Source: an uncultured Pseudomonadales bacterium (GTDB taxonomy: Bacteria > Patescibacteriota > Microgenomatia > UBA1400 > PJMF01). Taken from it: DNA of 64,000 nt. The notes below the pieces were generated by a model. The model had not been told where the DNA came from. It was given only the letters and a program-made list of their open reading frames with translations, and made no database searches. The DNA is taken from assembly GCA_964583625.1 (NCBI GenBank), contig CAZOVA010000001.1, forward strand, positions 480 to 64,479. Direction: 5' to 3'. Both the position numbers and the translations under genes were made by a program. Below, piece after piece: positions 7,833 through 64,000 of the stretch; the first letter of the stretch is position 1; every line of letters begins with the position of its first letter.

Positions 7833-7857
7833 ATTCTAATTTCTTTTCCTGCCAAAT

Positions 7858-8439: not shown

Positions 8440-8527
8440 AATCTATTCCTTTCATCTCCAATTCTACCACGATTTTATTAAATATAATTTAAATTCATTA
8501 TTCTTATCTCAAACAAACAGAGTTTGC

Positions 8528-8550
8528 CTTTATTATTAATAATAATAAAG
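8528..8550. promoter_or_regulatory. 23-bp near-perfect AT palindrome about 90 bp upstream of rbr; candidate Fur/PerR-type operator
   Basis: ctttattattaataataataaag. Its reverse complement differs only around the centre. Confidence 0.3.
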
Positions 8551-8553
8551 TTC

Positions 8554-11287: not shown

Positions 11288-11999
11288 TCATTCCTTCCAA
11301 AGAAGCTTTAATAAAAGATAAAGTCTCTGACAAATGGCTAAATTGTGGTGCATGACGCGCATTTTTTATAATTTCTAGTTTTGCTTGAGGTAAAAGTTGG
11401 ACCATTTCTCGAGCTAAATAAGGTGGTGTTATCTTGTCTTCACTTCCCCAAAGCAAGCTAATAGGAATGTCAATCGTGGATAAAAGAGGACGCAAATCAG
11501 TATTGACTAGATTGGTCATTGTTTGTTTCATCACTGGGGAAGCTTGATAATAATCCTTTTCCCTCAAAATTTTATAAAAAATTTTTCTTATTTTCTCATT
11601 CTTTGCCCAGTTTTTACCAATTTTTGCTAGCCAAAGACCAATTTTTTTCTTAATAACTTTTTGCCAGTTTTTATCAATAAGACCAGCACTACCAATCAGT
11701 ATGGCCCGATCAACTTTTTTTTGTCTTTTCTTGTCAACTAAATAGGCTAAAATAATTCTTCCCCCATTAGAGTGACCAATCAAAGTGACCTTTTTTTGTT
11801 TCGGCTCCAATCGGGCAATCTCTTTATCTAGCCAGTCAGTATAATCGGCCAAAGTCCAAGCTTGATCAAGTTTCTTGCCTGTCAACCCAGGAATTGATAA
11901 AAGATTAACAGCCAAGCCTTCTTTTTGCAAAGCAGCAATTAAAGGAAGCATTTTTTCTTCGCTATAAGTCCAACCAGGTAAAACAAGAATTTTAGACAT
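11274..11999 (-). CDS. Alpha/beta-fold hydrolase
   Basis: Nucleophile elbow GHSNGG and a C-terminal His (NARHAPQ); 241 aa. Confidence 0.7.
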   Translation of the reverse strand: MSKILVLPGWTYSEEKMLPLIAALQKEGLAVNLLSIPGLTGKKLDQAWTLADYTDWLDKEIARLEPKQKKVTLIGHSNGGRIILAYLVDKKRQKKVDRAILIGSAGLIDKNWQKVIKKKIGLWLAKIGKNWAKNEKIRKIFYKILREKDYYQASPVMKQTMTNLVNTDLRPLLSTIDIPISLLWGSEDKITPPYLAREMVQLLPQAKLEIIKNARHAPQFSHLSETLSFIKASLEGMNGQI

Positions 12000-37746: not shown

Positions 37747-38715
37747 TTAATGGTCAGCAAGGTTGTTCTTTTTAGTCTCTATCAGGAACTGGTTATCTTC
37801 AAGAACTAGAGTTATTTGCCCGTCTTGGTCAGTCCTTAAAATTTGACTATTAATCTCCTTTAATCTTTCTAATACTTCTATGCTTGGATGTCCAAATCGG
37901 TTTTTTTCACCAACACTAATCAAAGAAATTTCGGGTCTAACAATGGATAAAAAATGAGCTGAAGTTGATGTTTTTGACCCATGATGGGCTATTTTTAGCC
38001 AATTACTTTTCTTTAGCAATCCAGAGTTTATAATTGCTAATTCTACATCTTGGTTTATATCCCCAGTTAATATAATATTTTTGTGAACAATATTCATATT
38101 TATAACTATAGATCCATTATTATTTTCACTATCTATATGATCACTTTTTTTTAAAATATCCCATAATATGGATAATTCATACTTATAGGAGAAAATTTCT
38201 CCAGGCTTATTTTTTTGATCATGCCACAAAATTTCTAAGCAAATCGTTTCCGCTTCACACCATTTTTGCGCCAAAACAGGGTAAACAACTTCCAGTCCTT
38301 CTGTCTCTATTTTTTTCCAGACTAGCTCATAAAAGTCTAAAAATAAATTTGTCTTCTTAAAAACATCGTTTATTAATAGTTTTTTAACTCGGTAATTCTT
38401 AAAAACATCTATTAATCCAGACAGATGATCAGAGTCAGCATGAGTTAAGACCACTAGTTCTATTTCTTTGTCACTCTTTGGGATCATTTTACTCAAGCAG
38501 TGGACAATTGATGCGTCTGGACCTCCATCAATTAGAATTTGTGTCCTCTCTTGGGTAATTAAAATAGCATCTCCTTGACCAACATTGCATAAAGTAACTC
38601 TGGGGGAGTCATCTAATAAAAGCCTTTTTTTATCTGAAAGTGTGACGCAAAAAGCATAAAGCCAGAACAAGATTAATATCCAGACAAGAACTTTAGACTG
38701 AGAAAGTTTCCACAT
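37747..38715 (-). CDS. comEC: ComEC/Rec2 C-terminal metallo-beta-lactamase domain protein
   Basis: MBL motif VLTHADSDH and downstream HHGS; overlaps the upstream ComEC membrane ORF by 23 nt. Confidence 0.7.
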   Translation of the reverse strand: MWKLSQSKVLVWILILFWLYAFCVTLSDKKRLLLDDSPRVTLCNVGQGDAILITQERTQILIDGGPDASIVHCLSKMIPKSDKEIELVVLTHADSDHLSGLIDVFKNYRVKKLLINDVFKKTNLFLDFYELVWKKIETEGLEVVYPVLAQKWCEAETICLEILWHDQKNKPGEIFSYKYELSILWDILKKSDHIDSENNNGSIVINMNIVHKNIILTGDINQDVELAIINSGLLKKSNWLKIAHHGSKTSTSAHFLSIVRPEISLISVGEKNRFGHPSIEVLERLKEINSQILRTDQDGQITLVLEDNQFLIETKKNNLADH

Positions 38716-40078
38716 AAGTAAAACGATTAATAGTCCTTTTCCTATATAAATAAAGCCCTAAGAACAAGAAAAAATAATAAAAGAAGATTATATTTTTCGG
38801 TATTTCCCAATCAAAAGGCAAAAGTCCTCCAAAAAAACCAGAATAAAAATAGAATATTTTATAAAATAAAGACGAAAGTTTCTCAAGATAAAAGGCTAAA
38901 GGGAAAATAATAAGTTTGTCAACAATTTCTTCTAAAAAATTAGGAGTAAAAAGAAAAACAACTAAAAAATTCGTGCTTAAGACAACAATTAGCGTAATTA
39001 AAAAGGAAAATACTAGATTAGAAATTATGCCAGACCAAGCAATTTCATGAAAAAAGGCTATTACAATCGGTAAAGTAAATAATTGCGCGGCTGAAGAAAC
39101 CAGAATGGCCTCTTTAAGACCTTTAATCATTAATTTAAACCAAGACCTTCTCCTATTATATAAATCTAAGCTAATAATTTCATTTTTTATTTCTTCAATT
39201 TTATGAAAATTATTGCTAACAAGAATGACTCCAAGAGTAGCAAAAAAACTTAAAAGAAAGCCCACATTTGTTATATTTAAGATCATTTTATTAAACATTA
39301 TTACAAAAGCTAAAAATAAACCCAAAAAACTATTTGTCTGTTTATAAAAAAAATACCTACCAATAAAGGAAAAAGTCCACATTATCCCAGCTCTCAAAAC
39401 AGATAATGGACTGCCAACCAATAAAATATAAAATATTAAACCAGACAGAGAAAGACAAAGAAACACTTTTCTATTATTAATAGGCTTGCAAATCGCTCCC
39501 CAAACTGACATAATTAAACTCAAATGGAATCCAGATACAGCAACCATATGAGATAGCCCTATTTCAGATATTTGTTGCTTAAGCTCTTGATCAAAGTCAA
39601 AAGCCCTATTTCCTAGAGTAAGAGAAGTAATGAGTTGAAAACTGTCATTTTGAAAGTGACTTCTAAGAAAAAAAAGGAGTTTTTGTTGAATGTCATCAAC
39701 TCTTTTTTGCAAAATAATAAATTTTTTGTTCATTAAATCAAAAAACGAAAGTTTATTTTTATCTTTTATAAAAAATTCTTCTACATCAATATTATTTTGA
39801 TAATTAATTTTATTATCAATCAAACTATTTACAGTGCCAATTATCGTATAATGTTCTCCAATTTTCATGTTTTTACAATCCTCTATTTTGAAACTAAAGC
39901 CTGGTTTGATCTGAAAATAACAATTTTGAGGAAGAGAAAGCAAAAAAAATTCGAGCTCAATTTTTTGTCGATGATGATAAATTAATTTTCGTCTTATTAT
40001 TATATAGTTACTTAAAGATAAGGTAATTAAAATAAAAATAAATATCAAACTATATTTTTTAGTTCTATTTTTTTTCAT
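38693..40078 (-). CDS. comEC: ComEC/Rec2 N-terminal polytopic membrane (competence channel) domain protein
   Basis: Competence-domain signature GLSHMVAVSGFHLSL; many TM segments. Confidence 0.7.
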   Translation of the reverse strand: MKKNRTKKYSLIFIFILITLSLSNYIIIRRKLIYHHRQKIELEFFLLSLPQNCYFQIKPGFSFKIEDCKNMKIGEHYTIIGTVNSLIDNKINYQNNIDVEEFFIKDKNKLSFFDLMNKKFIILQKRVDDIQQKLLFFLRSHFQNDSFQLITSLTLGNRAFDFDQELKQQISEIGLSHMVAVSGFHLSLIMSVWGAICKPINNRKVFLCLSLSGLIFYILLVGSPLSVLRAGIMWTFSFIGRYFFYKQTNSFLGLFLAFVIMFNKMILNITNVGFLLSFFATLGVILVSNNFHKIEEIKNEIISLDLYNRRRSWFKLMIKGLKEAILVSSAAQLFTLPIVIAFFHEIAWSGIISNLVFSFLITLIVVLSTNFLVVFLFTPNFLEEIVDKLIIFPLAFYLEKLSSLFYKIFYFYSGFFGGLLPFDWEIPKNIIFFYYFFLFLGLYLYRKRTINRFTYVETFSV

Positions 40079-40116: not shown

Positions 40117-40758
40117 CTATAGAGAGAGCACTCCCTTATTATCAATAAAAATGCTTTCAGTAATAATTTTTTTACTGATTAGCTCTTCTACCTCATGATA
40201 GGGTCTACCATCAATTATTTTCTGGGCTCTTACTTCTCCTATTCCTGTAAGTGTCATCAATTCACTTAGTGGGGCGTTATTAATCGACACTAAATCATCT
40301 ATTTCAGCCTTTTTATTCTCAACTCCAATTACTTCATCTTTAAAAGATAAAACTTCGTTTTTATAGGGAATATAGTATTTTTTGCCATCACTAAGCTTTT
40401 CAGCTAAATTTAAATTCTTTTGCAGCCACCAATTATCAACTTCCGAAGTTTTAAATCCTCCTGCGAGAACAATTAAATCTGCTAGTCTGGAGGTGCTCTC
40501 CAATTGATAGGCTCCTGGATAATTAATCCCTCCGCCTATATCGACTACGATCAAGGAACTTAAAAAATTTGATTTTATAGTCTTGATGTTGTCTTTTGGT
40601 TCTTTTTCTAAAGTAAAAATTTCTTGAGAAAAGATGGGTGTCTGATTAATGAAAAAGGTAAGGCTAAACATAACTAATCCTAAGAGGATAAGGGTTGTGG
40701 CTGCGCTAATTAGAATTTTTTTTCTATTTTCCTTGTATTTATTTAGAAAATTTCGCAT
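40117..40758 (-). CDS. comEA: ComEA-like DNA receptor (SLBB plus helix-hairpin-helix)
   Basis: C-terminal HhH INNAPLSELMTLTGIGEVRAQKIIDGRP; N-terminal TM anchor. Confidence 0.8.
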   Translation of the reverse strand: MRNFLNKYKENRKKILISAATTLILLGLVMFSLTFFINQTPIFSQEIFTLEKEPKDNIKTIKSNFLSSLIVVDIGGGINYPGAYQLESTSRLADLIVLAGGFKTSEVDNWWLQKNLNLAEKLSDGKKYYIPYKNEVLSFKDEVIGVENKKAEIDDLVSINNAPLSELMTLTGIGEVRAQKIIDGRPYHEVEELISKKIITESIFIDNKGVLSL

Positions 40759-40877
40759 ATCTTTTGCCTTTCTTAAGATAAGATAGAGTAAAAAAATAAC
40801 AAAAATGTGATAATTCTTTTAAAAGCTAAGTTTTCACCTTTTTTTGGGTATAAATATTTGTCATTATCTTTTTATTT

Positions 40878-40935
40878 TTATTAACGCATAATTAATGCAA
40901 TATTAACGCATAATCTAGAAAGATTATTAATGCAA
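40878..40935. repeat. Short direct repeats TTAACGCATAAT (x2) and ATTAATGCAA (x2) inside a 1.2-kb AT-rich non-coding region; a related aacgcattaaatgcat lies at about 41722
   Basis: tttattaacgcataattaatgcaatattaacgcataatctagaaagattattaatgcaaa. Confidence 0.5.
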
Positions 40936-41942
40936 AAATACAAATTTTATTATTAATAGATCAAAATTAACTTAATTGGTTGATTAGAAAAAGTAAAAAA
41001 AATAAACCAAATAAAAGCCTGAATGAGGGTTTTATTTATTTAAAAAATGTAAAAAGCATAAATACCAGACGAAAACAAGGTTGGACGGACGTTCTGATCG
41101 CTAAACTACGATTTTTTACCTTAAAGAAAAAAGCGAATAGAATATTAATAAAATACGAAAATAAATTAAGGTTTCTAACAAAAATTTTTATAATAAAAAA
41201 AGATATTTTTTCATTGATTTTTAGCACTAATTATCAAAAATTTTTATATAGCACAGATGTTATTTGTTTGCTAATAAGGGAGGAAGAAAAAATAATAGAA
41301 AAACATTTTATTTTAAACAATTTTCGCTTTTAATAAAAATAAGCTCAGTTATTCTAAGGGAGAACCTTAAAGGATTTTAGCATAAAAAGTTTTTGTTCTA
41401 TTGCTTTCTTCCCTTTACTCAGGTTAAGCCTAAGATTTTGACCTTTTTTATTAAAAGAACTGCTTATTTAGACTTAAAGACCTGCTTTCACCTCTCATAG
41501 ATCCTATTTAGAGAGTTCTTATTAATCTGTATTTAGACAAAATTTTAATTTAACCGTATATTTGTTTTTGATTAAAAAAATAATTTTTTATTGGAAGTCA
41601 TTGTTCATTATCAATTTTTTTAATTAATAATTTAAATTTTCAATTAAATTATTAAATTATTTTTTGCGATAATATTTTAAAACTAGGCTATAAATAATCT
41701 CAAAAATTGCTTTAATAAAATTAACGCATTAAATGCATGTAAAAACTTATTAAATAAAATTAATAAATAAGCTAAATTAATAAAATTTTGTGACGAAAAT
41801 ATTTTAAGCGGTAAAAAATAGTACGACTTGTAATAAAAAGATTAATTTGCTAGAATGAATTGTTTGAAAATTTAATAGGGTTTTACTAAACTTTATGAAT
41901 AATTGATTATTAAAGATTATTAAATAACAATTTTTTATCAAA

Positions 41943-47688: not shown

Positions 47689-48507
47689 TTATTCTTCATT
47701 AATCAGGTTGGCGTAAACGAAAAGTCTTAGGTCATTGTCCCACCAAAAAATACAGGTATACATTACCAGATCTGCTTCATTCTCGGTAATACTAGTGGCT
47801 TTCTCTATTTTGTAAATTTGATAAAACCACTGTTTCTGATTGTCCGTGATAATTACTTGGTCTCCAATATTTACCTTGTCTAAATTTTGAAAAGTTTGAC
47901 TATTCTGTTTTTTTGAGGTCAACATATTGTAGTGATGTCCAGCTAAAATAACGGGTTCTTCCCAATGGCCATATTTATTAAATTCAGGGTAAGCATAAAT
48001 TCCCTGATCAAGAATCTTTTTTACTTCTTTATCATCCTCAATGTTTTGATTGGTGAGAATTTCTGCATCAATTCCTGCCGAATCAATTTTTAACCATTGC
48101 CCTGCAGGAGCATTAAGGTCATATTTTGGTTTAATTTTTCTAGCCGCTACCGCCGTCGCTTCCATCTCAGGCACAACTGACAAAATTATTTGCTCCGAAC
48201 CGTGAGAATTTTCGTTTTGATATAATTCTCCAGCTTTAATCAAACTATTATTAAGATTGGGGAAAAGTTTAAATGTTAGCTGGGGTAAAAAATAGACAGC
48301 AAAAGACAAAATTCCTAAAAATAAAAATATATTCAAAGAGGCTTTGATGACCGTTCTTTTCCAACTACTTTTTTTCTCGATATTTTGCGCTGGAATTGTA
48401 GTAAAAAATTGCTCATTAAAAAATAACTGACGCATTGTCGGGAAGCGCTGGTGAAGAAAGTTTTGATTAGGTTCTAGTCTGGAACTGATCGCAAGCATAT
48501 CGATCAC
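47689..48507 (-). CDS. Sortase-family transpeptidase
   Basis: Catalytic triad context: ILAGHH (His), LVMYTC (Cys), downstream LRLFV (Arg); N-terminal TM. Confidence 0.65.
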   Translation of the reverse strand: MIDMLAISSRLEPNQNFLHQRFPTMRQLFFNEQFFTTIPAQNIEKKSSWKRTVIKASLNIFLFLGILSFAVYFLPQLTFKLFPNLNNSLIKAGELYQNENSHGSEQIILSVVPEMEATAVAARKIKPKYDLNAPAGQWLKIDSAGIDAEILTNQNIEDDKEVKKILDQGIYAYPEFNKYGHWEEPVILAGHHYNMLTSKKQNSQTFQNLDKVNIGDQVIITDNQKQWFYQIYKIEKATSITENEADLVMYTCIFWWDNDLRLFVYANLINEE

Positions 48508-49145
48508 AAATCATAGCATCTTTCCCTAAAAAAGTCAATAATTATAGGCCAGTGAAAAAAATTATTTGTAGCTTAAATTTGTACAAAACTCTAAATTTTT
48601 CCCTGATTAAACTAAAATTGCACTATTTTTAACTAAAAAGTTATATAAAGTGAGAGTTTACAAAATAAAAAAATCGTTTATCATAGGGGTTATCGTTGAG
48701 TGTAGTTCTAATATCTTTTGGTTGAACTCACTCTCGAACAGGGAAAAGCATTGTTATTCGTGGTCTGTCCAGCGATAATAATGCTTTTTCGTTTTTAGTT
48801 AGTCTTTAAAACAATTTTCAAAATAATCTCCTTAAATAAACCAACAAACTTGCATATTAGTTTTCCACAATTTTCTATTAATCTTTTTTAGAATAATTTT
48901 TTATCCCCCTTTCTATATTTCTAGCCAGCTATTGTGTGCAAATAAATATTATAAGATAATATATTTAAACACTATTTATTAATATAGGTCTAAATATAAA
49001 TTTTTGTTTATTATATGCTTATCAATCAACTAAAAAAATTAAAGGCTTTTATAAAAACTTCTTTATAAATTATGTGCTAAAAAAACAAAACTGGAGCTAG
49101 AACTTGACAAGGATAGCCTTTTTATAGTAAACTGACTTACATATT

Positions 49146-52100
49146 ATGAGTTCTAAATCGCTCAAAAAGAACAAGCGAAGTGTTTCTGTGGTGGAGCAAA
49201 AGAAAGGCTCTGCTTCTGTTGGAAAAAATAGGTCGCACCGCTTATTAAATCAGTTCATTGACTCGACTAAGCCAGCGACAAAAAAACCTAATCTCCAGAA
49301 AGAAATTGAGCAAGAAAAACTCGGCCTTGACCAACTATTAGCCCAACTCGAAAAAGAACAAGCTGCAGCCGCTCCTCGCCTTCTGGGAGATTTGGGGAAA
49401 ATTTTGGGAAGAAATAAAGCTGGAAAAAACTCAAGTTTAGATCAAGAAATTAAAAAGAAATCTTATCAAGAAGAGTTTTTCAACCAAAAAAATAAGAGCT
49501 TAAAGCAAGAAATAGATTTTCCCACCAAGCAAGCGGCGGACGACACAAATCCCAATCCTCTCAAAAACTTAAGCTTTATTGTTTTCGCCCTTTTTGGACT
49601 AGGATTAGCTGTTTTTGGTCTTAATCAATTAATCAAAAACGCCAGTCTTAATTTTGCCGCCCCAGAACAATCAAGTTTGGCCCAAACTCCTAAAAGCATT
49701 TTGACTTTTCAAGGGAGATTGAGTCATAAAACAAACGGTGTCTTTAACCAACCGGTCAAAATGCTTTTTGAGCTCTACAATACTAGTGGAGGTAATACCC
49801 CTCCTCCTATCGGAGGAGATCTACTTTGGAGTAGTAATTTTTGCTCTATTTCACCCAATCAACAAGGAGTTTTTGCTGTTAACCTAGGATCTGGTAACGG
49901 CGATGGCAATGACGGAGAGAATTGCGGGCTTGATTTAGGAAGCGTTTTTGCTCAAAACAGTAGTGTTTGGTTACAGATCACTGTTGATAAAGAGGTTTTA
50001 TTTCCTCGCCAATTGGTTAAAAGTGTTCCCTACGCTCTTAATAGTGCTTCCTTGCAAGGGTTCTCCGCCAGTAAAGCTATTACCGCCAATACTATCCCTG
50101 TCGTTGATGAGAGTGGTAATTTAAATTTTGTTACTCAGGAAACCGCCATCACTAACTTAGGAAACCTTGGATTGATTTCAAAAACTGGAGATTTATTTCT
50201 CTTACCAGGATCAGGAAAAGTCTATATTGGCAATCAAGATTATAAGGCAGACTTAAAAGTTAGTGGCGATTTGGAAATAAACAATAGTTTAATTTTTTCG
50301 GCGACTAATGAGGCAAAAATTCAAGCAACTAATGCTGGTTTAAGCTTTTACACCAAAGCTGGTCAAGATTTTTGGGAGAATCAATTAACCTTAACTAAAA
50401 ATGGCTTTTTAGGTTTGGGAACTGATCAACCAAAACAAAAGCTAACGATTAATCAAGGAAGCTTGAACTTTGATTTTAGTGTCGGGCCTGATTCCAGTCA
50501 GTTGAGATTGCAAGAGCAGGGCTATCATCCTCAAGGCTTGACTCGCCTGCCCTCTCCTCCGACATTAAAAGTCTCTCTCATTGATAGTCCAGGAAATTTA
50601 AGTAATGCTCGTTATAAATATCGCTATAGCTATATTACGGCTGACGGTAAAGAGGGAGGATTAAGTCCCATCTTTGTTTTTGACAGTAACCTTGATCAAA
50701 AACAATTTTCAATAGAAAATATTTCTACTTATCAATTGCCAAATGTTACAGGCAGAAAAATCTACCGCACAAAAGCTAATGGTGAAGACTTTTATTTCTT
50801 GGCCACCATCAACGATAACCATACCACTAGCTGGACAGACAATACTGCTGACGAGGCTCTTATTTCTCTTCTTGTTGATCACGGCAATCAAACAGGAACT
50901 TATAAATATAAATTAACTTTTATTACGGATAAGGGAGAAGAAACAAATTCTTCAATCAATCATGCAGCTATTACTCTTACCGGAGACCAAAGAGCAATTA
51001 AAATTGACAATCTACCAATTGCTACTGTTCCCATTCGAGCCAGAAGGCTCTACCGCTCACTCGCCAATAGTGACTTTTATTTCCTAGTGGCCAACATTCC
51101 TGACAATAACACCACTAGTTGGCTGGACACTTTGGCTGATAAAGATTTAGTGGCTTTGCCAACTATGCCTAGCGGCGGTGGCATTTATGCTAATAATAGG
51201 CTTTCTTTACAGCTTGACAATGACGGGTCTATTATTACTCAAACCAAATTAACTGCTCAAAATAGACTGGAAACTTCTCATGGGAATAATCAGGGTTTAC
51301 AAATTCCTACATCTAGTGGCAAACCAAGCATTAAGGTGGGACAAAAAGTTGGCGATATAGTTTATGACTCTCTTAATCAATTAATTTATATCTACAATGG
51401 AGTTGACTTTGTCTCTACTGGCGGAGGGACTCCCTCCTTTGCTAGCAATAGTCACTGTGCCGGCAATACTTGTCGTCTAGTTCTTGATCCAGAATACCCA
51501 GGAGTGGTCATAACTGGATCAGCAGATCTTTCCCAAAGTGATCTTTCTAGTGGACACGATGTGGTTGACAATCAATACCGCTTCAATTATTATCGCTGGG
51601 TTTCAGCTAATAGCCAAACTCCAAGCTCTCTTACTTTCTCTATCAATCTAACAATTCCTCAAGACTTTTCTTCTTGGCAAGAAAAAGCTATCACTCTAGA
51701 CTTTTTGACCCATAGCTCAAACTTAGAACAGAATTCCCTTAGTTTAGAAGTCTTCCGTCAAGGTAGTAGTTTGAGCGTAACAAAGACTAAACAAACTAGC
51801 CCCTCAGAATCTTGGGCCAGCACGGCTCTTAACACTCAGCCTCTAACTCTCAGTCGTGATGAACTTGAAGTTTTAGGAGTTAAGGGTGGTGAAACTCTGA
51901 CCTTAAAAATTATTGGAGAAAGTCAGAATAATCATTATATAAAAATTGGTCAGCTAAATCTCAACTATTATAGTTCTGGGGAAGATCAAAAGGTTCAAAG
52001 TCAAAGTCTTTGGCGACAGTTATCTGGAGTAATTTTCCCCGCCAATCAAGGTCAAGACGTGGTTCTGGGGGGAGATTCAACAGCAAGCGCAAAAATAGCT

Positions 52101-52499
52101 TTCCTTAATTTGGGGGATGTCGGTGTCCCAACCCTCTACCTCCAAGGAAATATCTTTCTTGATAATCAAAGTAAGAAAAACTATCTTGATTTAGCTCAAG
52201 ATAGTAGTTTTAGAATTAGAACCCTTGACCAGGATAAGGCTTTGGAGCGTTTCACTATTCTACCCAATGGTAATGTTGGTATTGGAGTAAGTGACCCTCA
52301 GGCAACCTTGGATGTTGGTGGTGACACCAGGATTAAGGGTAGTCTACATTTACAGCCAGTGACCGAAGTTCAGGCTGGCCCTTGCAACTTAGAAAATCAA
52401 GGAAAGATCTATTATAATAGTTTAGATCTTAAGTTTTATGCTTGTCAAGCGGTCACAACAGACGGCACCGGTTCAGCTTGGGTTAAGCTTGGTCAATAA
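49146..52499 (+). CDS. Giant (1117-aa) N-in single-pass surface protein with a coiled-coil cytoplasmic N-terminus, internal tandem ~85-aa repeats and thrice-repeated tail-fibre-like G.VGIG...P...L.V.G motifs
   Basis: TM LSFIVFALFGLGLAVFGL at about aa 145. Tandem repeats YKYRYSYITADGKEGG...FYFLATINDNHTTSWTDNTADEAL and YKYKLTFITDKGEE...FYFLVANIPDNNTTSWLDTLADKDL. The stop TAA lies 1 nt before the next ATG. Confidence 0.5.
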   Translation: MSSKSLKKNKRSVSVVEQKKGSASVGKNRSHRLLNQFIDSTKPATKKPNLQKEIEQEKLGLDQLLAQLEKEQAAAAPRLLGDLGKILGRNKAGKNSSLDQEIKKKSYQEEFFNQKNKSLKQEIDFPTKQAADDTNPNPLKNLSFIVFALFGLGLAVFGLNQLIKNASLNFAAPEQSSLAQTPKSILTFQGRLSHKTNGVFNQPVKMLFELYNTSGGNTPPPIGGDLLWSSNFCSISPNQQGVFAVNLGSGNGDGNDGENCGLDLGSVFAQNSSVWLQITVDKEVLFPRQLVKSVPYALNSASLQGFSASKAITANTIPVVDESGNLNFVTQETAITNLGNLGLISKTGDLFLLPGSGKVYIGNQDYKADLKVSGDLEINNSLIFSATNEAKIQATNAGLSFYTKAGQDFWENQLTLTKNGFLGLGTDQPKQKLTINQGSLNFDFSVGPDSSQLRLQEQGYHPQGLTRLPSPPTLKVSLIDSPGNLSNARYKYRYSYITADGKEGGLSPIFVFDSNLDQKQFSIENISTYQLPNVTGRKIYRTKANGEDFYFLATINDNHTTSWTDNTADEALISLLVDHGNQTGTYKYKLTFITDKGEETNSSINHAAITLTGDQRAIKIDNLPIATVPIRARRLYRSLANSDFYFLVANIPDNNTTSWLDTLADKDLVALPTMPSGGGIYANNRLSLQLDNDGSIITQTKLTAQNRLETSHGNNQGLQIPTSSGKPSIKVGQKVGDIVYDSLNQLIYIYNGVDFVSTGGGTPSFASNSHCAGNTCRLVLDPEYPGVVITGSADLSQSDLSSGHDVVDNQYRFNYYRWVSANSQTPSSLTFSINLTIPQDFSSWQEKAITLDFLTHSSNLEQNSLSLEVFRQGSSLSVTKTKQTSPSESWASTALNTQPLTLSRDELEVLGVKGGETLTLKIIGESQNNHYIKIGQLNLNYYSSGEDQKVQSQSLWRQLSGVIFPANQGQDVVLGGDSTASAKIAFLNLGDVGVPTLYLQGNIFLDNQSKKNYLDLAQDSSFRIRTLDQDKALERFTILPNGNVGIGVSDPQATLDVGGDTRIKGSLHLQPVTEVQAGPCNLENQGKIYYNSLDLKFYACQAVTTDGTGSAWVKLGQ

Positions 52500-52500
52500 G

Positions 52501-54666
52501 ATGCCACAAAAATTATTTGAAATTCGCACTGGTCGAGACAGTAAAAAAGACGCTCTAGCAATGACAGAGTTTTTTCTTACTATGCCTTCTTTTAGAGAAA
52601 ATGTCTGGTGGCAAATTCTTGGCCAAAAAGAAGCGGCTAGCTTTGAAATCGTTTTAGAGAATCAAACTGTTTCCTTTTTTGTTTCTTTTCCAGAAAGGTT
52701 GAGTTTATACTTAAAAGGCTTAATTGGAGCTCACTACCCACAAGCAACAATTTCTCCAGCTGATACTGTCAACTATTTTGATTTTTATAAAGAAAAATTA
52801 AATACCAATCATAGTCAAGAGGTTTTAATTACTAGAGTTAAACTCTTGAATAATCAGTGCCTACCTTTAAAAGACTTTCGCCAGTTTGAAACAGGAGATT
52901 CTTTAGCCTCACTTCTTTCCCGTTTGTCAAAAGCCTCCATTCAAGATCGGGCCGTGATTCAATTGATTGTCACTAATGGTGATGATTGGTGGAAAAATGA
53001 TTGCCAAAAAATAATAGACCAAGATGCTGACTCAAACTCTAGCGCCTCACAGCAAAAAGATTTTATAAAAGAGAAAATTCGAGAAAAAGGTTTACTGGTT
53101 AATTTTAATATTCTTGTTGCTAGTGGTGATAAAACTCAGGCTCAACTTTTTCTTGATAGTTTGATTGACACTGTTAATACGGTGAAAAAGGAAGGAGGGA
53201 ATCAGTTTAAAAAGAGACTTCCTCCTTTGCTTCCCCAGTTATTACTGAAGCAAATGATAGCTAGGAAACAGCATAAACAAACGGCTTTTCATCTCACAGC
53301 TTATGAGCTGGCAACCATTTATCATTTTCCCAATGAAGTTTTGTCGACTATTCCTAATTTAGCTTGGGGAAAAAACCTCTTGGGAGAGCCACCAGAAAAC
53401 CTTCCAATCGTCAGAAGAGATTCTCCTCCAGACTTAAAACAAAGTATTAATGTTTTTGCTCAAACAAATTTTAAAAATGAAATGCAAAAATATGGCATTA
53501 ATAAGATTGACCGCCGTCGCCACATGTATGTAATTGGAAAAACAGGGACTGGTAAGTCTACTCTCTTAGCGAATATGGCTATTAATGATTTACGCAATAA
53601 TGAGGGGGTTTGTTTTATTGACCCTCATGGAGACGCCATTGATATTTTACTTAATTATATTCCTGCTAGTCGGATCAATGATGTGGTTTTCTTCAATCCT
53701 GCCGACGGGGAAAGAACAGTTAAAATTAATTTATTTGAAGGTAGAAATATTGAACACCGAGAATTAATCGCCTCAGGTATTGTTTCGATTTTTCAAAAAC
53801 TTTATTCTTATTCTTGGGGTCCAAGATTGGAGCATTTCTTACGTAATGCTCTTCTAACTTTATTGCAAATGGAAAATGCTCGTTTATCAGATATTGTTCA
53901 ACTCTTCACTGATAAACAATTCCGTAAAAAAGTCCTTGAGCAATTACAAGATCCAGTTTTGAGAAGTTTTTGGGAAGGAGAGTTTGAGCCCTTACAAGAT
54001 CGACTTAAAAATGAAGCCGTCGCTCCAATTCTTAATAAAGTGGGACAGTTTGTCTCTTCACCTTTGGTCCGAAATGTGGTGAACGCTTCCCAAAGCTCCT
54101 TTTCTATTGAACAAATCATGGATGAAGGTAAAATTCTCTTAGTCAATCTTTCACAAGGGATGCTTGGAGAAGACAATGCCACTCTTTTAGGAGCCATGTT
54201 GATCACAAAAATTCAATTAGCAGCTATGGGTCGCGTTCATATCCCTGAAGAACAAAGGCGGGACTTCTATCTTTATGTTGATGAATTTCAAAACTTCGCT
54301 ACCAGCTCATTTAACAAAATTCTATCAGAGGCCCGTAAATACAGACTTAATTTGGTTTTAGCCAATCAGTATATTGCTCAAATTCCTGAAGATGTACAAA
54401 AGGCCATTTTTGGTAATTGTGGTAGTATGGTCAGCTTTGTAATGGGGAGCGAAGACGCGCAAGTTTTCTCTAGAGAATATGGAGAGAAATATAGCTTTGA
54501 TGATCTGGTTTCTTTGAACCGACATCAAATTATCAATCGTTTGTCAATTGATAATGTCATTTCCCAACCTTTCCCCGCTTATACTTTACCTTTGGCAAAA
54601 AGCAGCAATCAAAATAAGGAAAAAGTTATTCGTGTGAGTCGTGAGCGTTACGCCACTAAAAAATAA
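52501..54666 (+). CDS. Soluble P-loop NTPase of the FtsK/HerA/TraG-VirD4 (type IV secretion coupling-protein-like, DUF87-like) superfamily
   Basis: Walker A YVIGKTGTGKST followed by FIDPHGDAI (HerA/DUF87-like h-D-x-HGE/D). Walker B LYVDEFQNF. Downstream LANQ. No TM segments. The ORF track starts at 52438, but ATG 52501 directly follows the upstream stop. Confidence 0.55.
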   Translation: MPQKLFEIRTGRDSKKDALAMTEFFLTMPSFRENVWWQILGQKEAASFEIVLENQTVSFFVSFPERLSLYLKGLIGAHYPQATISPADTVNYFDFYKEKLNTNHSQEVLITRVKLLNNQCLPLKDFRQFETGDSLASLLSRLSKASIQDRAVIQLIVTNGDDWWKNDCQKIIDQDADSNSSASQQKDFIKEKIREKGLLVNFNILVASGDKTQAQLFLDSLIDTVNTVKKEGGNQFKKRLPPLLPQLLLKQMIARKQHKQTAFHLTAYELATIYHFPNEVLSTIPNLAWGKNLLGEPPENLPIVRRDSPPDLKQSINVFAQTNFKNEMQKYGINKIDRRRHMYVIGKTGTGKSTLLANMAINDLRNNEGVCFIDPHGDAIDILLNYIPASRINDVVFFNPADGERTVKINLFEGRNIEHRELIASGIVSIFQKLYSYSWGPRLEHFLRNALLTLLQMENARLSDIVQLFTDKQFRKKVLEQLQDPVLRSFWEGEFEPLQDRLKNEAVAPILNKVGQFVSSPLVRNVVNASQSSFSIEQIMDEGKILLVNLSQGMLGEDNATLLGAMLITKIQLAAMGRVHIPEEQRRDFYLYVDEFQNFATSSFNKILSEARKYRLNLVLANQYIAQIPEDVQKAIFGNCGSMVSFVMGSEDAQVFSREYGEKYSFDDLVSLNRHQIINRLSIDNVISQPFPAYTLPLAKSSNQNKEKVIRVSRERYATKK

Positions 54667-54667
54667 C

Positions 54668-56146
54668 TTAAATTTTTAAATCACTAAGAAGAGCTTTTAA
54701 GTTTTTATGGCTCTTATAAGAATAAATTTCTTGATAGCCTAGTCTTTTAGCCTCTTTAACTCTTCGATCAAAAGAACTCACTGGACGAATTTCTCCCATT
54801 AAACCAATTTCCCCAATAAAAATTGCTTTTGCTGGTAAAGTTTTTTCTGCTAAAGAAGAAGCAATCGCTGTTGCTAGACCCAAATCTATGGCTGTGTCAG
54901 TTATTTTCATCCCGCCAACAATACTTAAAAAGATGTCGCTCGTTCCTAATGGCAGACCGCAGTGTTTTTGTAAAACCGCAGCTAAAATCTGAACTCTAGA
55001 GAGATCGACACCCCTTCCTACTCTCCGGGGCATTACTAGCTGTGAAGGTAAAACTAAAGCCTGGACTTCTGTTAGAAGAGGTCTTGTCCCCTCCATAACA
55101 CAAACAACTCCACTTCCAGGAATTTGACTTTGTGCACTTTGTAAAAAATAAGCACTTGGATTATCAATTTCCTCCATTCCTTGGTTAGTAAGCCTGAAAA
55201 CGCCCACTTCATCGCTAGCTCCAAAACGATTCTTAAGAGTCCGCAAAAATCTAATTTCGTCACCTCTTTCTCCCGTCAGCTCAAAAATAACATCAACTAG
55301 GTGTTCTAAAACCTTTGGCCCAGCCAAGCTACCGTCTTTAGTAACATGTCCAATTAAAAAAGTCGGAATGTTTAGTTCTTTGGCAGTTTGGGTAATGCGG
55401 TCACTACTTTCTTTCACTTGACCTAAACTGCCAGCCGGCCCCAACAAATCTTTAGTTTTTAGTGTTTGGATAGAGTCTACTACTAAAAGTTCTGGTTTTG
55501 ATTCACGCATCAACTGCGTGATTGCATCAACATCGGTTGTGGTGACATAAGTTAAGGGCAAATCTTCCTTTTGTTCACTTTTTGACAACAACCTTTGCAA
55601 ACGTAAGTTAATTTGTTGAGGACTTTCTTCTCCACAGACATACATTACTTGAGGTAAATCTAAGGTTTTAGACATTTTTTCAACAGCGTGTGAATAAGTT
55701 TTAACTGGTCTTTCCGGTTTATTTAATTTATTTGTATCAAAATCTTTTTTAACGCTTGTTTTGCGGTAATTACGAGCTAGAATTTCTTTACACCAATTTA
55801 CAATTACTTGTGTTAGTAAAGTTGATTTGCCAATTCCTGGTTGTCCTCCTAATAAAACAACGCTCCCCTGGACCAAACCCATTTTCCCGTCTCTATCAAT
55901 ACCTAAACAACGGTCGAGTTCTTCAATTTTAGTAGAAAAACGCTTAAATGAGGTATTTAAAGTGTTTGCCTGACTAAAAGAAACGGTTATTTGCTCCAAA
56001 TGGAGACTTTCCTTGGTTGCCTTCTTTTCTTCTTTCCTCGTTTCTTCTGCTAAAGAATTCCAGTTGTTACAATTATCACAACGCCCCTGCCACTTACTGT
56101 ATTCTTGTCCACAAATTTGACAAACAAAAATATTTTTAGCTTTCAT
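54668..56146 (-). CDS. radA: DNA repair protein RadA (Sms), with a ~45-aa insertion in the RecA-like domain
   Basis: N-terminal zinc finger CQICG...CDNC; Walker A GGQPGIGKSTLL; KNRFG motif; Lon-like C-terminus. Confidence 0.9.
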   Translation of the reverse strand: MKAKNIFVCQICGQEYSKWQGRCDNCNNWNSLAEETRKEEKKATKESLHLEQITVSFSQANTLNTSFKRFSTKIEELDRCLGIDRDGKMGLVQGSVVLLGGQPGIGKSTLLTQVIVNWCKEILARNYRKTSVKKDFDTNKLNKPERPVKTYSHAVEKMSKTLDLPQVMYVCGEESPQQINLRLQRLLSKSEQKEDLPLTYVTTTDVDAITQLMRESKPELLVVDSIQTLKTKDLLGPAGSLGQVKESSDRITQTAKELNIPTFLIGHVTKDGSLAGPKVLEHLVDVIFELTGERGDEIRFLRTLKNRFGASDEVGVFRLTNQGMEEIDNPSAYFLQSAQSQIPGSGVVCVMEGTRPLLTEVQALVLPSQLVMPRRVGRGVDLSRVQILAAVLQKHCGLPLGTSDIFLSIVGGMKITDTAIDLGLATAIASSLAEKTLPAKAIFIGEIGLMGEIRPVSSFDRRVKEAKRLGYQEIYSYKSHKNLKALLSDLKI

Positions 56147-61111: not shown

Positions 61112-61162
61112 AAGGCCCGCGGGATGTTTCTATCTTATTAGGTTTTGTATTATAATAACAAT

Positions 61163-64000
61163 ATGGCAGACCAAGAGCCCAAGGATTCTTTACGTTTAAG
61201 CTATACCACTTTAGTCGGTTTTCAAGTAGCTACTGCTTTGGGCTTGCAAAGACAAGACTTATTGGCGACGATTGAGTCCCCACTACAACAAAGTGATCGG
61301 GAGACTCTTTTTGCCATCTTTAATTTTCAGCCTTTTGATTTAAGTGGAAGAGAGGTTTTTACCAAAGCTTTTGCCGACGAGAATCAAAGCGCCGATTCTT
61401 TTGCCGACATTTATCAGCAGTCTGCCCAATATTATCGGCGTTTCGATCTTTTAGACCCCAAAGTTTTGAATAAGACCGCTAAGCCGCTCGACTCTGAGCA
61501 ATTAGAAAATTTAAAACAAGCTTATAGAAAAGTTTTAAGTGGAGATATTAAAGCAGAATTAGAAAAACTTTTTAATCCTGCTTTTGTTAAGGACAGAGAA
61601 AAGGGAGCTTCTACTATTACTACTGGGGCTGCTATTTCTCTCACTTCTACAAAAAAAGACACAGAGAAGGAAGGGGTTTCACAAAAGGATCAAGCTGAAA
61701 AGTCTAAAAAGGAAGAAAGTAGAAGCGGTTCGGGCTCCTCTTTCGCTGCCTCTCAAACAGAGGAAGCAACTGATAATGATTCTAGTTTTAATATTTCTCA
61801 GCCGGCTGATATTGAAAGAGCAATCCAAGAAATTTCTGAAGACTCATCCTTAGACTTAAAAACTAAAGCTGAAAAACAAACCCAATTTTTACTTAATCTA
61901 TTACAAGAGGATCAAAAAACAAATATTAAAATTGGCGCCAGTCTTTTCCTTTTAACAAATAAAAATTTACACGGTTTAATAAAAGGACAACTCCCCAACT
62001 TAAATGAACAGCTTTTCCAAGAAATCTCTAAGCTTGATCAGCTAGCAGAGAAATCCATTTATGATCTAAATTTATTTTTTAATCAACAAAAAGAACTTTT
62101 ACAAGAGCGGCCTGAATTGGCTTTTGGCACTAAAAGGCAGGAGTTTTTCCAGCAAATGCTGGCTAAATTAGAAGAAGAAACTTTAACCAAACTCGACTTA
62201 ACTCCCGAGCAAATGGCGAGCTTTGAAAAACTTTTTAAAGAAAAATACAACCAAACTATTATTGATAATCCTGGACAAGATCCTCAATCCAATCAACTCT
62301 ATCTTTTGGATGATGAGGAACCTTTAGTAGACAAAGAAAATTTACAGGAAACTAGTCAAGCGCCCTCCTCTGATCAAGCTTTACCTTCAGAACAAAAGCC
62401 AGCCTCTGATACCTCTAAAACGTCGGAAGATCAAGCTCAAATTACTCAAGAAGAAAAGACAAAGACTTTGGGCTCTAAAGCCGACAACACTTTTGTTCCA
62501 CCTCAAAAAAAGGAACCAGCTAAAGAAGAAAGTCGGCCCTCTTCTCCTAAAAGAGTTGTTGGACAGTCAGTTCCACAAAACGAAGATTCCTCTTCTGACG
62601 AGCAAGATTCTTCATCAGTTGAAGAAGAACCCTCGCCTCAAGCTTCTGATGAAGAACAAAGATTTTCACCCCCTCAAGAAGCAGAGGGTCTAAATCAAGA
62701 AAAAACAGAGCCGACCGCTCAGGTTGATAACTTTAATTCTCCTCAACAATCAACTCCAGAAGGATCCGCTCCGGCCTCCTCTCCTGCAGATATAATTGAA
62801 CAAAAACCAGAAGATCTCTCTCCTTCTCCTATTGGCGAACAAACTCTAGCTCCTGGAGCAATAGTTCCTCAGTCTTTACCAACAGCTGAGAAACAAACTG
62901 TTGGTCCTTCTTTGTCAGGAGGAGGAGTCCCCCCTTTTTATTCATCTGAAAATCTACCTCCTTCATCTTCACAAAATTTAGACTCAGAAAGTGAAGATAA
63001 AGACGACAAACAAAGTAGTAAAAAACAAGACACCCTAAAAAGACTAAGGGAACAAGCTAAGAAAAAAACCCCTCAAAGACTAAAAAAAATCACTCAAAAA
63101 ACAAAGAGTTTATTATCTAAAACAAGAAAAGTTCTAAACCAAACAGGCAAACTTGCCGTACGAGCAGGCAAAGCAACGGCCAAAGTCGCCAGCAAAGCAG
63201 CCAGAGCTACAGCTAGAGCCTTAACGAAGCTGATGAGCCTTTTGATTAAAGCGGCGGTTTCCCTATTTAATGCACTCGTTGCCCTAATCACTTTTCTTGT
63301 CAGCACTCCTATTGGTTGGGCTATTCTAGCAGTTGCTGCGGTGTCGGCTATTGTTGTTACTGTAGTTGTAGTTGTCCAAGAGGAGCAGAGACAAACTCAA
63401 GAAACAGCCAATATTACTAATCAGTCTCCAGTAGTTAATGCCGACTGTCTTCCCTGTCTTTCCTTAACCAAAAAAATCATTCCTAATAGTTTGCCAGGGC
63501 CAATCGCTCAATTAGGTAGTGAAAAAGCAAGTTTTACTTATACATTAACGCCCAATTTAAATCATTGTTCTGATATTGTGCTAGATGGAGAGTGTAGTGA
63601 TATTCTTAGTCTAGCTTGCAAACAAAGTTCCAACGATGATTCTCAAAATAATACTTGTCCAAATTTTGAAAATCCTCTCCCCTACACCCTGCCTCCTCCC
63701 ATAGCCGATCTTTCTTCTACTGGAAAAGGGGTGCCAGAAAATTATGCCCTACCAAGCATTCCAGAAAATGCTGTTTCTCAAGAGGGAGAGATGAGTGTTC
63801 CTGTTTGTAATGCCTTGATGAGAGCCTTAAAAACAGACTCTTTAACTGGCTTTAAAATAGACAAAGAGGTTTCTTTTGACTTAGAAGAGTTTTTTCCTGG
63901 AGGCTACCCTTTGCCCGCAGGAAATGATTATCGTTTGACAAACATTATCACTTTAGGATATGAATCAAAAAGAAAAGAAGACACTTGTCGAGCGATTCAG
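61163..64000 (+). CDS. Large N-in membrane protein, 3'-truncated by the window edge and not in the ORF track. It has a folded N-terminal domain, a ~500-aa acidic Ser/Pro/Glu/Gln-rich disordered region, a basic amphipathic segment, a TM, then a Cys-rich extracellular domain.
   Basis: Translated by eye from ATG 61163 in one frame, with no stop through 64000. TM LFNALVALITFLVSTPIGWAILAVAAVSAIVVTVVVVV. Ectodomain Cys pattern CLPC...C..C...C. Confidence 0.5.
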   Translation, partial: MADQEPKDSLRLSYTTLVGFQVATALGLQRQDLLATIESPLQQSDRETLFAIFNFQPFDLSGREVFTKAFADENQSADSFADIYQQSAQYYRRFDLLDPKVLNKTAKPLDSEQLENLKQAYRKVLSGDIKAELEKLFNPAFVKDREKGASTITTGAAISLTSTKKDTEKEGVSQKDQAEKSKKEESRSGSGSSFAASQTEEATDNDSSFNISQPADIERAIQEISEDSSLDLKTKAEKQTQFLLNLLQEDQKTNIKIGASLFLLTNKNLHGLIKGQLPNLNEQLFQEISKLDQLAEKSIYDLNLFFNQQKELLQERPELAFGTKRQEFFQQMLAKLEEETLTKLDLTPEQMASFEKLFKEKYNQTIIDNPGQDPQSNQLYLLDDEEPLVDKENLQETSQAPSSDQALPSEQKPASDTSKTSEDQAQITQEEKTKTLGSKADNTFVPPQKKEPAKEESRPSSPKRVVGQSVPQNEDSSSDEQDSSSVEEEPSPQASDEEQRFSPPQEAEGLNQEKTEPTAQVDNFNSPQQSTPEGSAPASSPADIIEQKPEDLSPSPIGEQTLAPGAIVPQSLPTAEKQTVGPSLSGGGVPPFYSSENLPPSSSQNLDSESEDKDDKQSSKKQDTLKRLREQAKKKTPQRLKKITQKTKSLLSKTRKVLNQTGKLAVRAGKATAKVASKAARATARALTKLMSLLIKAAVSLFNALVALITFLVSTPIGWAILAVAAVSAIVVTVVVVVQEEQRQTQETANITNQSPVVNADCLPCLSLTKKIIPNSLPGPIAQLGSEKASFTYTLTPNLNHCSDIVLDGECSDILSLACKQSSNDDSQNNTCPNFENPLPYTLPPPIADLSSTGKGVPENYALPSIPENAVSQEGEMSVPVCNALMRALKTDSLTGFKIDKEVSFDLEEFFPGGYPLPAGNDYRLTNIITLGYESKRKEDTCRAIQ

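Follow-up and report, generated by a model that had tools for sequence, protein, structure and literature searches.

Do a gene for a large fibre-like membrane protein and a gene for a soluble ATPase that starts one nucleotide after it encode the parts of one apparatus, or are they neighbours by descent? The question is raised by a 64,000-nucleotide stretch of contig CAZOVA010000001.1 (the window), which comes from an uncultured bacterium placed by its GTDB lineage in the patescibacterial class Microgenomatia. The open reading frame (ORF) map of the window contains a fibre ORF of 1117 aa at 49146-52499 (+) and an ATPase ORF at 52438-54666 (+); all positions are window coordinates, and L- and P-numbers are labels of the compared loci and proteins. 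An initial annotation had described the two as translationally coupled and had read them, together with a flanking sortase and radA, as a conserved but uncharacterised surface apparatus of reduced-genome episymbionts. The ORFs, the divergent sortase gene, the end of radA 1 nt from the ATPase gene and the junction at which the fibre stop codon lies 1 nt from the ATPase start (CAA TAA G ATG) are all present in the ORF map. This start is ATG 52501, which gives a protein of 721 aa and was assigned by alignment with more than 100 homologues sharing the conserved N-terminus M-x-x-H-x-L-L-E-x-R-T-G-R-D; the ATG at 52438 chosen by gene callers gives 742 aa (P0001). Domain identities, distribution, synteny and promoters were computed, and the explanation that we favour with moderate confidence is that of two separable units that are neighbours by descent, a lineage-specific attachment fibre beside an older, independent ATPase resembling type IV coupling proteins (T4CPs).

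The pairing was surveyed in 84 loci around ATPase homologues. A fibre homologue was found in seven of these (L005-L010 and L015), directly upstream, on the same strand and next to an ATPase of at least 67% identity. Fibre homologues, in 22 protein clusters, occur only where the identity of the ATPase is at least 62% (L005-L010, L015, L087, L089, L109 and L122). The most distant full-length homologues, P0142 (40% identity) and P0141, occupy the same slot before the ATPase gene, and so do an 804-aa variant related to the fibre in its N-terminal half only (P0157 in L122) and a 579-aa variant in L109 (BLASTP 1e-20 to the fibre; ATPase 62% identical). The latter has a Pro/Ser-rich head that lacks the LGDL motif described below, followed by a transmembrane (TM) helix and two repeats as its sole ectodomain modules. 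Where the source records of the fibre clade name a habitat, they are metagenome-assembled genomes (MAGs) from goat jejunum.

At least 29 loci with an ATPase of 54-60% identity keep the same syntenic block without the fibre gene, with 0.3-1.9 kb before the ATPase gene. In the loci without the fibre (L001-L004, L011-L035, L053 and L059) this gap holds only a candidate small RNA (sRNA) gene or short unconserved ORFs; the small ORFs before the ATPase gene, such as those of 96 aa in L001 and L016, were considered and dismissed as not conserved. Among 30 metagenome contigs retrieved via the sRNA, 29 are without the fibre. These contigs and at least 29 related genomes retain the ATPase and sRNA genes and, for the most part, the sortase and radA around them. 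The pairing is real and stable, is confined to one narrow clade, and is predated by the ATPase. The conservation claimed for the pair in the initial annotation holds, with the fibre in the same slot, for 12 close lineages and fails in the related genomes and contigs just mentioned, and the idea of a conserved apparatus of episymbionts with reduced genomes does not fit an ATPase whose age and spread greatly exceed those of the pairing.

The spacers between the fibre and ATPase genes measure 1, 5, 10, 15, 27, 29, 36, 47, 48, 51, 159 and 193 nt, the last value (L109) being read from the ORF list. A -10-like element, TGnTATAAT or TATACT, is present in the spacer of seven among the ten relatives whose fibre is full-length and is kept in L006-L010 and L015, whose spacers are 27-159 nt long. 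In fibre-less loci the ATPase start is preceded, at a distance of 7-15 nt, by an extended -10, TGCTATACT or TGTATATAAT, and this short distance suggests a near-leaderless ATPase mRNA. The fibre mRNA in L006 appears likewise to be leaderless or nearly so, judging by the closeness of its -10 to the start. Extended -10 elements of this kind were noted before the ATPase starts across L001-L059 and in the window at 49104-49145. The element in the spacers looks like the ATPase's own promoter, and translational coupling is therefore not ancestral. The 1-nt junction is a derived state that is compatible with the coupling proposed in the initial annotation for this genome and gives no indication of an ancestral operon. 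In the window genome, where only 1 nt of the spacer is left, the fibre mRNA probably serves for synthesis of the ATPase as well. The fibre gene has a predicted promoter of its own at 49104-49133 (+), read as TTGACA-18-TAAACT by scan and as TTGACA-17-TATAGT in alignment with relatives; TTGACA-N17-TATAGTAA is conserved 5' of the orthologues in L005, L006, L007, L009 and L015, with the variant TATTGTAG in L010. The GC content of the fibre gene equals that of its neighbours, and there is thus no sign of recent transfer.

What kind of ATPase is it? Its N-terminal domain (residues 1-290; 52501-53370, +) is a soluble alpha/beta domain of the family DUF8128 (PF26449), modelled with a predicted local distance difference test (pLDDT) score of 75-93, and PF26449 is precomputed on the first ~300 residues of nearly all its homologues. 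A T4CP-type nucleotide-binding domain lies at 53509-54489 (+), with Walker A at 53536-53562 and Walker B (DEFQNF) at 54280-54297; the motifs GKTGTGKST, FIDPHGD, DEFQNF and LANQ occupy residues 346-354, 372-378, 594-599 and 620-623, respectively. An all-alpha insertion is found between Walker A and B at residues ~417-540, with six modelled helices at 417-518. In characterised T4CPs the all-alpha domain binds DNA or substrate. Residues 337-663 matched the Pfam families TrwB_AAD_bind (2e-10), DUF87 (1.9e-7) and TraG-D_C (2.1e-7), all above the curated cut-offs; for TrwB_AAD_bind (PF10412) the score was 40.6 bits compared with a cut-off of 20.5, and the match covered positions 13-324 of the 387 in the profile. 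No Pfam match to FtsK_SpoIIIE (PF01580), AAA_10 or CagE_TrbE_VirB was obtained at E <= 0.01, and no hydrophobic (TM) segment was detected by hydropathy.

The only solved structures related by sequence were TrwB (3.7e-7) and DotL. When an AlphaFold monomer model built from 20 homologues (mean pLDDT 72.9) was compared at full length using Foldseek, the best match was TrwK/VirB4 (E 2e-11 over ~750 columns, with a TM-score of 0.39 and a root-mean-square deviation of ~10 A), followed by TrwB, DotL, HerA and Cag-beta, with HerA ranking below TrwB. These Pfam, structural and hydropathy results agree with the initial annotation, which had placed the protein in the HerA/FtsK/VirB4-VirD4 clade without TM segments; among the families that it had named, DUF87 and TraG-D_C match and AAA_10 does not. 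It had also pointed out that an ordinary chromosomal FtsK/SpoIIIE translocase would speak against a dedicated system. Such an identity was rejected and we consider it extremely improbable: the ATPase belongs to the same ASCE superfamily, and the annotation of one plasmid homologue reads 'DNA translocase FtsK', but PF01580 is absent at the threshold used, there is no N-terminal TM helix, and FtsK chains appeared neither among the sequence matches to solved structures nor among the 50 best fold matches listed. A role in anti-phage defence was also rejected: the PADLOC matches were confined to partial, generic P-loop similarity to HerA and mad8, and partner genes were absent.

Outside Patescibacteria the closest homologues align with residues ~250-720 alone. 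Among them are Bacillus phage proteins such as gp27.4 of SPO1 and actinobacterial plasmid T4CPs that are 31-32% identical, including an Embleya plasmid T4CP (31%) encoded in a T4SS-type operon, whose neighbours are PrgI, a replication-relaxation (relaxase-like) protein, an NlpC/P60 hydrolase and a second ATP-binding protein read as VirB4-like. No relaxase, VirB or mating-pair genes were found among the scanned ORFs of the window or in syntenic relatives, and the initial annotation was right in seeing no VirB6/B8-like genes nearby. To judge by its sequence the ATPase is a T4CP derivative; we call it T4CP-like and not a coupling protein, because it fails in both the N-terminal TM domain and the linkage to relaxase and mating-pair genes.

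The family to which it belongs is very widespread. A word-indexed search with the ATPase gave 3,204 matches, the best 120 of which were all at least 56% identical, with 57-60% identity outside the fibre-bearing lineages. In species-representative genomes, 572 of 600 pattern-matched stretches contain a gene for a relative. The Microgenomatia-type orthologues (Pacebacteria, Woesebacteria etc.) have ~715-740 aa and are all without a TM segment. In loci of the Saccharimonadia, Berkelbacteria and related types the family has an N-terminal TM helix, and these TM-bearing forms are tandem paralogues, one of ~830 aa and the other of ~900-1,070 aa, with a conserved protein of ~180 aa encoded between them; they are found among L062-L084 (e.g. 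L069 at 6757-9252 and 9791-12658; also L074, L076 and L080). In Moranbacteria-type loci the family is split into two genes. The N-terminal TM helix, which family members in Saccharimonadia and related classes possess, has been lost in Microgenomatia, and only the Microgenomatia-type form is soluble. In three Woesebacteria-type loci (L028, L030 and L032, ~6650-9960) a polytopic membrane protein of ~1,100 aa is encoded directly 5' of the ATPase; it was considered as a second case of pairing and rejected, since these proteins are unrelated to the fibre and look like glycosyltransferase- or YfhO-type proteins.

A survey of 3,035 Patescibacteria genomes has reported 5,713 VirD4-type T4CP homologues in 2,918 of them, 148 near virB4 (PMC12102498). 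The T4CP homologue of S. epibionticum was reported there as non-essential and its exaptation was raised by the authors (PMC12102498), and the essential type IV secretion system (T4SS) cluster of the same organism, defined by transposon sequencing, is without a recognisable coupling protein (PMC10633639). The initial annotation called the system uncharacterised; patescibacterial T4CP homologues away from virB4 had already been described, as proteins without an assigned function (PMC12102498).

The fibre protein has no match to any Pfam or NCBIfam family. In a single-chain AlphaFold model (mean pLDDT 59) the confident parts are residues 186-290, 450-670 (~90) and 800-945 (~85), and the poor confidence at residues 288-445 and 946-1070 is consistent with segments that would fold only as an oligomeric fibre. 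The cytoplasmic head (residues 1-138; 49146-49559, +) is Lys-rich and predicted to be disordered (pLDDT 24-41); of the basic coiled coil proposed in the initial annotation the basic character is present, and the model has only short helices and no convincing coiled coil. Conservation within the fibre is lowest in the head (column identity 0.33), and the motif [KR]xLG[DS][LI]xxxL occurs in it in one to four copies in 19 of 21 homologues, the head in the window having one (RLLGDLGKIL). A single TM helix, as had been proposed, was identified by hydropathy and modelled at residues 139-165 (49560-49640, +). It is presumably an N-in/C-out (type II) signal anchor, given its basic N-terminal flank and the positive-inside rule.

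The ectodomain begins with a membrane-proximal beta-sandwich (residues 186-291; 49701-50018, +; pLDDT ~75) with which the most strongly conserved part of the protein starts (residues 186-345, column identity 0.76). A fibre-like segment at 50214-50462 (+), recognised by motif scan and by the phage family phrog_18345, contains motif copies 1 (residues 357-375) and 2 (419-439). The core G-x-[VLIF]-[GY]-[IL]-G has exactly three sites in the protein (residues 357, 420 and 1042), the same number as in the initial annotation; copies 2 and 3 are clearly similar and copy 1 is weaker. The two tandem repeats reported in the initial annotation measure ~97 aa (residues 478-575 and 576-671; 50577-51158, +), are beta-rich (pLDDT ~90) and Ig/FN3-like, and align with each other with a local score of 144, compared with 26.8 +/- 4.8 (maximum 50) in 500 shuffles. 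They are followed by a probable jelly-roll domain resembling carbohydrate-binding modules (CBMs) at residues 798-945 (51537-51980, +; pLDDT ~85; Foldseek). Comparison of the whole fibre with the PDB using Foldseek gave CBM61 (2xom), CBM11 (6r31) and CBM27 (1of4) at target TM-scores between 0.42 and 0.61, and further matches to Cry-toxin receptor-binding domains and phage tailspike receptor-binding modules; the output is without query ranges, and the CBM-like matches probably fall on modelled residues 798-945. Motif copy 3 NGNVGIGVSDPQATLDVGGD (residues 1041-1060) and the terminal knob GKIYYNSLDLKFYACQA...W, recognised by tblastn and in BFVD, lie at 52266-52496 (+).

The likeness to phage tail fibres, which the initial annotation had proposed from the motif, was supported by hidden Markov model (HMM), tblastn and fold searches. 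In PHROGs, phrog_511 matched both repeats (1.1e-15), phrog_8040 and phrog_752 matched as well, and phrog_18345, 'tail fiber protein', matched residues 393-439 (2.1e-5). In a tblastn search the C-terminal 168 residues matched a tail protein of a Roseobacter phage and the tail-fibre genes of two cyanophages, P-TIM68 and S-TIM5, with E values between 1e-3 and 4e-3 and 49-51% identical residues along 45 aa, and Foldseek against BFVD gave tail-fibre and minor tail proteins (E 2.5e-14 to 1e-7). Taken together, the fibre motif and knob appear to be homologous to those of tail fibres, the matches at the sequence level being weak. With the two-repeat module, tblastn gave no matches in phage genomes. 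Small proteins with a single copy of the repeat sit in phage structural modules in L120, where the repeat protein follows Terminase_6N and a 682-aa ORF taken as the portal, and in L121, near Baseplate_J.

Do the two genes then remain from a prophage or an integrative conjugative element, as a tail-fibre gene with a transfer or packaging ATPase? The phage-like modules of the fibre would fit, and so would the ATPase, which matches phrog_5156 (1e-61) and has distant homologues on plasmids and in Bacillus phages (gp27.4 of SPO1 and gp156 of phage G). However, genes of mobile elements (integrase, terminase, capsid, relaxase or others) are missing nearby, the region lies inside a housekeeping block conserved across many genomes, its GC content is that of the flanks, and the ATPase is apparently inherited vertically, with ~60% identity across the class. 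Such a remnant was rejected, and we regard it as very improbable.

The modules of the fibre are widespread. A word-indexed profile of the repeat module retrieved only eight small proteins and missed the family itself, and an exhaustive HMM search was used instead; with the fibre, this exhaustive profile search gave 66,059 proteins at E <= 1e-3, of which 1,209 reached E <= 1e-30. Proteins of 2,000-7,900 aa begin with the N-terminal module, profile positions ~160-377 matching the N-termini of P0154 and P0159, and among other very large proteins the region of copy 3 recurs with as many as 61 copies in one chain. P0159 (5,631 aa; L123, 6001-22896), from a Patescibacteria MAG, shares the N-terminal module and is not encoded beside an ATPase; it also carries intein/Hint matches and adjoins a Laminin_G protein of 1,951 aa. 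Because the modules are very common and relatives reach 7,900 aa, the 1,117-aa fibre is a small member of a class of modular surface proteins that is itself very large.

These results allow the alternative of a dedicated adhesin-motor module to be weighed. The head would dock the TM-less ATPase at the membrane, the fibre would hold or sense a partner cell, and a hexamer of the ATPase would move DNA or protein. Several observations argue for such a module and so against the independence of the two genes. The adjacency and the shared strand are invariant in all 12 fibre-bearing lineages, at fibre identities of 28-57% and sizes of 579, 804 and ~1,060-1,250 aa. Junctions of 1-15 nt in four lineages suggest selection for co-expression, and no terminator was found between the two genes. 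A head-TM protein encoded before a T4CP-like ATPase that is TM-less in Microgenomatia, in a family with an N-terminal TM helix in other classes, is the expected look of a membrane tether in trans, and the recurrence of a short motif in a head that is otherwise not conserved implies that the head has a partner in the cytoplasm. Gram-positive conjugation moreover uses surface adhesins such as PrgB, and none of this kind was detected for the T4SSs of Patescibacteria (PMC12102498).

On the other side, the Microgenomatia orthologues are all without a TM helix, whether the fibre gene is present or not, which indicates that the ATPase works without a fibre tether in most lineages. The part of the fibre that would have to do the docking is also its most variable one, and in the 579-aa variant it is Pro/Ser-rich without the LGDL motif. 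Most relatives have separate promoters for the two genes, and the same N-terminal module heads giant proteins such as P0159 that are encoded away from the ATPase. We consider a dedicated module possible but unlikely. Still more doubtful is a minimal two-component, contact-dependent device in which the head motifs would recruit a hexameric ATPase and host binding would be coupled to the ATP-driven import or export of DNA or protein, with no need of a canonical T4SS channel.

For the explanation by two neighbouring but separable units, we infer oligomeric state, ligand, ATPase substrate and the absence of a physical link as follows. The fibre would be inserted by the Sec pathway with its N-terminus inside and its C-terminus outside, would oligomerise as phage fibres do, and may bind a glycan or a surface receptor on a host or partner cell, i.e. 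act as an attachment fibre. The ATPase, by homology, would form a ring-shaped, NTP-driven translocase or a substrate receptor, and would most likely handle DNA, possibly protein, for a chromosomal T4SS-like machinery or for one of DNA uptake or recombination. The fibre gene, with its own promoter, would have entered the slot between the sRNA gene and the ATPase gene in the ancestor of one narrow clade.

A more specific role for the ATPase was also considered, in view of its neighbours and its ancestry. The radA/sms gene (54668-56146, -; TIGR00416, 1e-132) is convergent with the ATPase gene and therefore not co-transcribed with it. The two are adjacent in 36 of the 84 loci, all inside one syntenic block of ~17 kb that consists of housekeeping genes, includes both radA and the sortase gene, and has the order Obg-LysM/M23-Rho-(sortase)-ATPase-radA-CTP_transf (cytidylyltransferase)-SBP-VanW. 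The ATPase could be a cytoplasmic motor that was exapted from a conjugative T4CP for use in natural transformation or recombination, and that would pull single-stranded DNA through ComEC as ComFA does or hand DNA to RadA or DprA; this proposal concerns the ATPase only and is compatible both with separable neighbours and with an adhesin-motor module. Its T4CP ancestry with the all-alpha domain and the downstream radA would agree with it, and so would comEA and comEC, ~12 kb upstream in the window. T4SS loci of the class ABY1 commonly include comF, recG and radA (PMC12102498), and comEC and the T4CP homologue have both been reported as not required for S. epibionticum to grow epibiotically (PMC10633639, PMC12102498). 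However, a convergent radA in a housekeeping block may be adjacent without functional meaning, and L055, L057, L104 and L112 keep the sRNA, sortase and radA genes together without the ATPase; since the three persist in this way, the adjacency of radA is weak evidence of a shared function. We see a motor of this kind as rather improbable.

The sRNA gene that borders the slot is a candidate for a small transcription unit of its own, with a promoter and an intrinsic terminator. The candidate sRNA, ~95-105 nt long, was located at 48693-48797 (+), between the sortase and fibre genes, by folding and by a covariance model, and a promoter scan placed TTTACA-16-TATCAT at 48657-48684 (+). In 20 aligned loci a -35 element GTTTACA and a -10 element stand at a fixed distance 5' of the hairpins. 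The predicted structure has a variable 5' hairpin with covariation, a conserved 3' hairpin, a near-invariant apex CGUGGUCUGUCCAGCG and then a U-run, and its minimum free energy is -38.4 kcal/mol (z = -7.3). The covariance model gave 54 matches at E <= 1e-9, comprising 45 distinct sequences, with 98.1% of cells paired and four pairs with compensatory changes; 38 of the 45 sequences have a G-U pair in the sRNA's own orientation. The matches are in Microgenomatia-type genomes and metagenome contigs, almost always between the Rho or sortase gene and the ATPase gene. Rfam 15 contained no match at the gathering score in the window and none at E <= 1 in 48400-49250.

Because the element lies between divergent genes, a terminator is sensible only for a small unit of its own. 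A dif/oriT-like DNA site and a leader of the ATPase mRNA were considered for the hairpin and set aside, given its own promoter, the U-run, the G-U orientation, its inversion together with the promoter in six loci (L008, L009, L015, L087, L089 and L109) and its presence in ATPase-free lineages. In L055 (2222-2340), L104 and L112 it lies between the sortase gene and radA without an ATPase gene, which indicates that the sRNA is linked to the syntenic block and not to the ATPase. In L035 the gene is present as a tandem duplicate (3065-3153 and 3212-3305). No conserved local antisense target for the loop was found; an 11-nt perfect complement in the fibre mRNA (50830-50840, +) was rejected as being at chance level, by our own estimate ~0.4 expected per window, and was not seen in other loci.

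On the other side of the sRNA gene, the sortase gene (47689-48507, -; PF04203, 3.6e-13) is divergent from the fibre gene and encodes a membrane-anchored protein (TM at residues ~52-75) with an intact catalytic set: His190, Cys252 and Arg261, within GHH at 190, YTC at 250-252 and LR at 260-261. It is found at the same position in 28 of the 84 related loci, with the fibre gene present or absent. The fibre was considered as its substrate and rejected, since no sorting signal was found: the C-terminus (...SAWVKLGQ) is without an LPXTG-type motif, a hydrophobic stretch or a basic tail, and the sole LPx[TSA]x match in the fibre is an internal LPGSG at residue 353. Given that the sortase sits there with or without a fibre and the fibre has no sorting signal, no specific link between the two is seen.

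Further from the pair, comEA (40117-40758) and comEC, which is split into two ORFs (38693-40078 and 37747-38715), were recognised by Pfam and NCBIfam. These genes, at 37.7-40.8 kb, and the AT-rich tract of 1.2 kb had been reported in the initial annotation and are present; the tract (40759-41942, 22-27% GC) lies between comEA and the gene for a TPR membrane protein, and gave no Rfam match and no convincing ORF. Two other ORFs of the window were noted. One at ~61160-64000 (+), running beyond the window end, has by its sequence features a fibre-like layout, with a long acidic, Ser-rich disordered N-terminal region, a hydrophobic segment near residue 680 and then an ectodomain. The other, at 43-3378 (+), encodes 1,111 aa rich in Cys, Ser and Thr with internal repeats (FPSAGxSSSWSCLGIYGGAAAxCS) and no Pfam match; it is probably another surface protein and may be truncated at the window start.

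Patescibacteria rely on attachment to cells and on import, and few of their surface and transport proteins have assigned roles. The 1,117-aa fibre, as a compact member of its superfamily, has an expressible size for ligand-binding tests. The phylum-wide T4CP-like ATPase is now more sharply defined, by DUF8128, by its soluble, TM-anchored and split forms and by its tandem paralogues. The clade that joins both genes offers a natural experiment on the action of the ATPase at attachment sites; if the two proteins are independent, as we think most likely, the locus would represent the ordinary insertion of an adhesin gene beside a conserved gene.

How does the pair compare with known systems? With T4CPs (VirD4/TrwB) the ATPase shares the nucleotide-binding domain with Walker A and B and the inserted all-alpha domain. 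Unlike them, it has no N-terminal TM segment and has an additional DUF8128 N-domain of ~290 aa. Its gene lies on the chromosome, seems to be present once and to be conserved by vertical descent, and is not accompanied by relaxase or VirB genes. The layout of an N-terminal domain followed by a C-terminal ATPase may correspond to that of VirB4 (TrwK of R388), the best full-length fold match, but the TM-score is only 0.39, a CagE_TrbE_VirB or AAA_10 signature is missing, and there are no VirB3, B6 or B8 neighbours. As regards HerA, there is the DUF87 match (1.9e-7), the fold matches rank below TrwB, the similarity in PADLOC is partial, and a NurA-like neighbour of the ATPase is lacking. The T4CP homologues far from virB4 in the published survey (PMC12102498) are probably the same proteins as the ATPase of the window; that study is without DUF8128, the division into soluble and TM forms, the tandem paralogues and the upstream fibre in one clade. 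The ATPase is a new member of a family already noted, the architecture of which is now better defined.

The fibre resembles phage tail fibres and receptor-binding proteins in the G-x-V-G-I-G...L-x-V motif, the C-terminal region, the tailspike and CBM folds and the repeat domain. It differs from them in lying in a cellular housekeeping block, flanked by sortase, Rho, ATPase and radA genes, in having a cytoplasmic head and a TM helix instead of a virion attachment domain, and in having no chaperone or baseplate genes beside it. PrgB-type adhesins are comparable as a functional analogy only, being surface adhesins encoded beside T4SS ATPase genes that provide cell-cell contact for transfer; no sequence or fold relationship was detected, and PrgB is LPXTG-anchored whereas the fibre in the window is anchored N-terminally. 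The giant surface proteins of 2,000-7,900 aa share with it the membrane-proximal domain and the repeated fibre motif. It differs from these in being short and in occupying a fixed slot before the ATPase gene, the sole long relative checked (P0159) being located elsewhere. The fibre is a compact variant within this very large class of surface proteins, and its pairing with the ATPase is a clade-specific arrangement.

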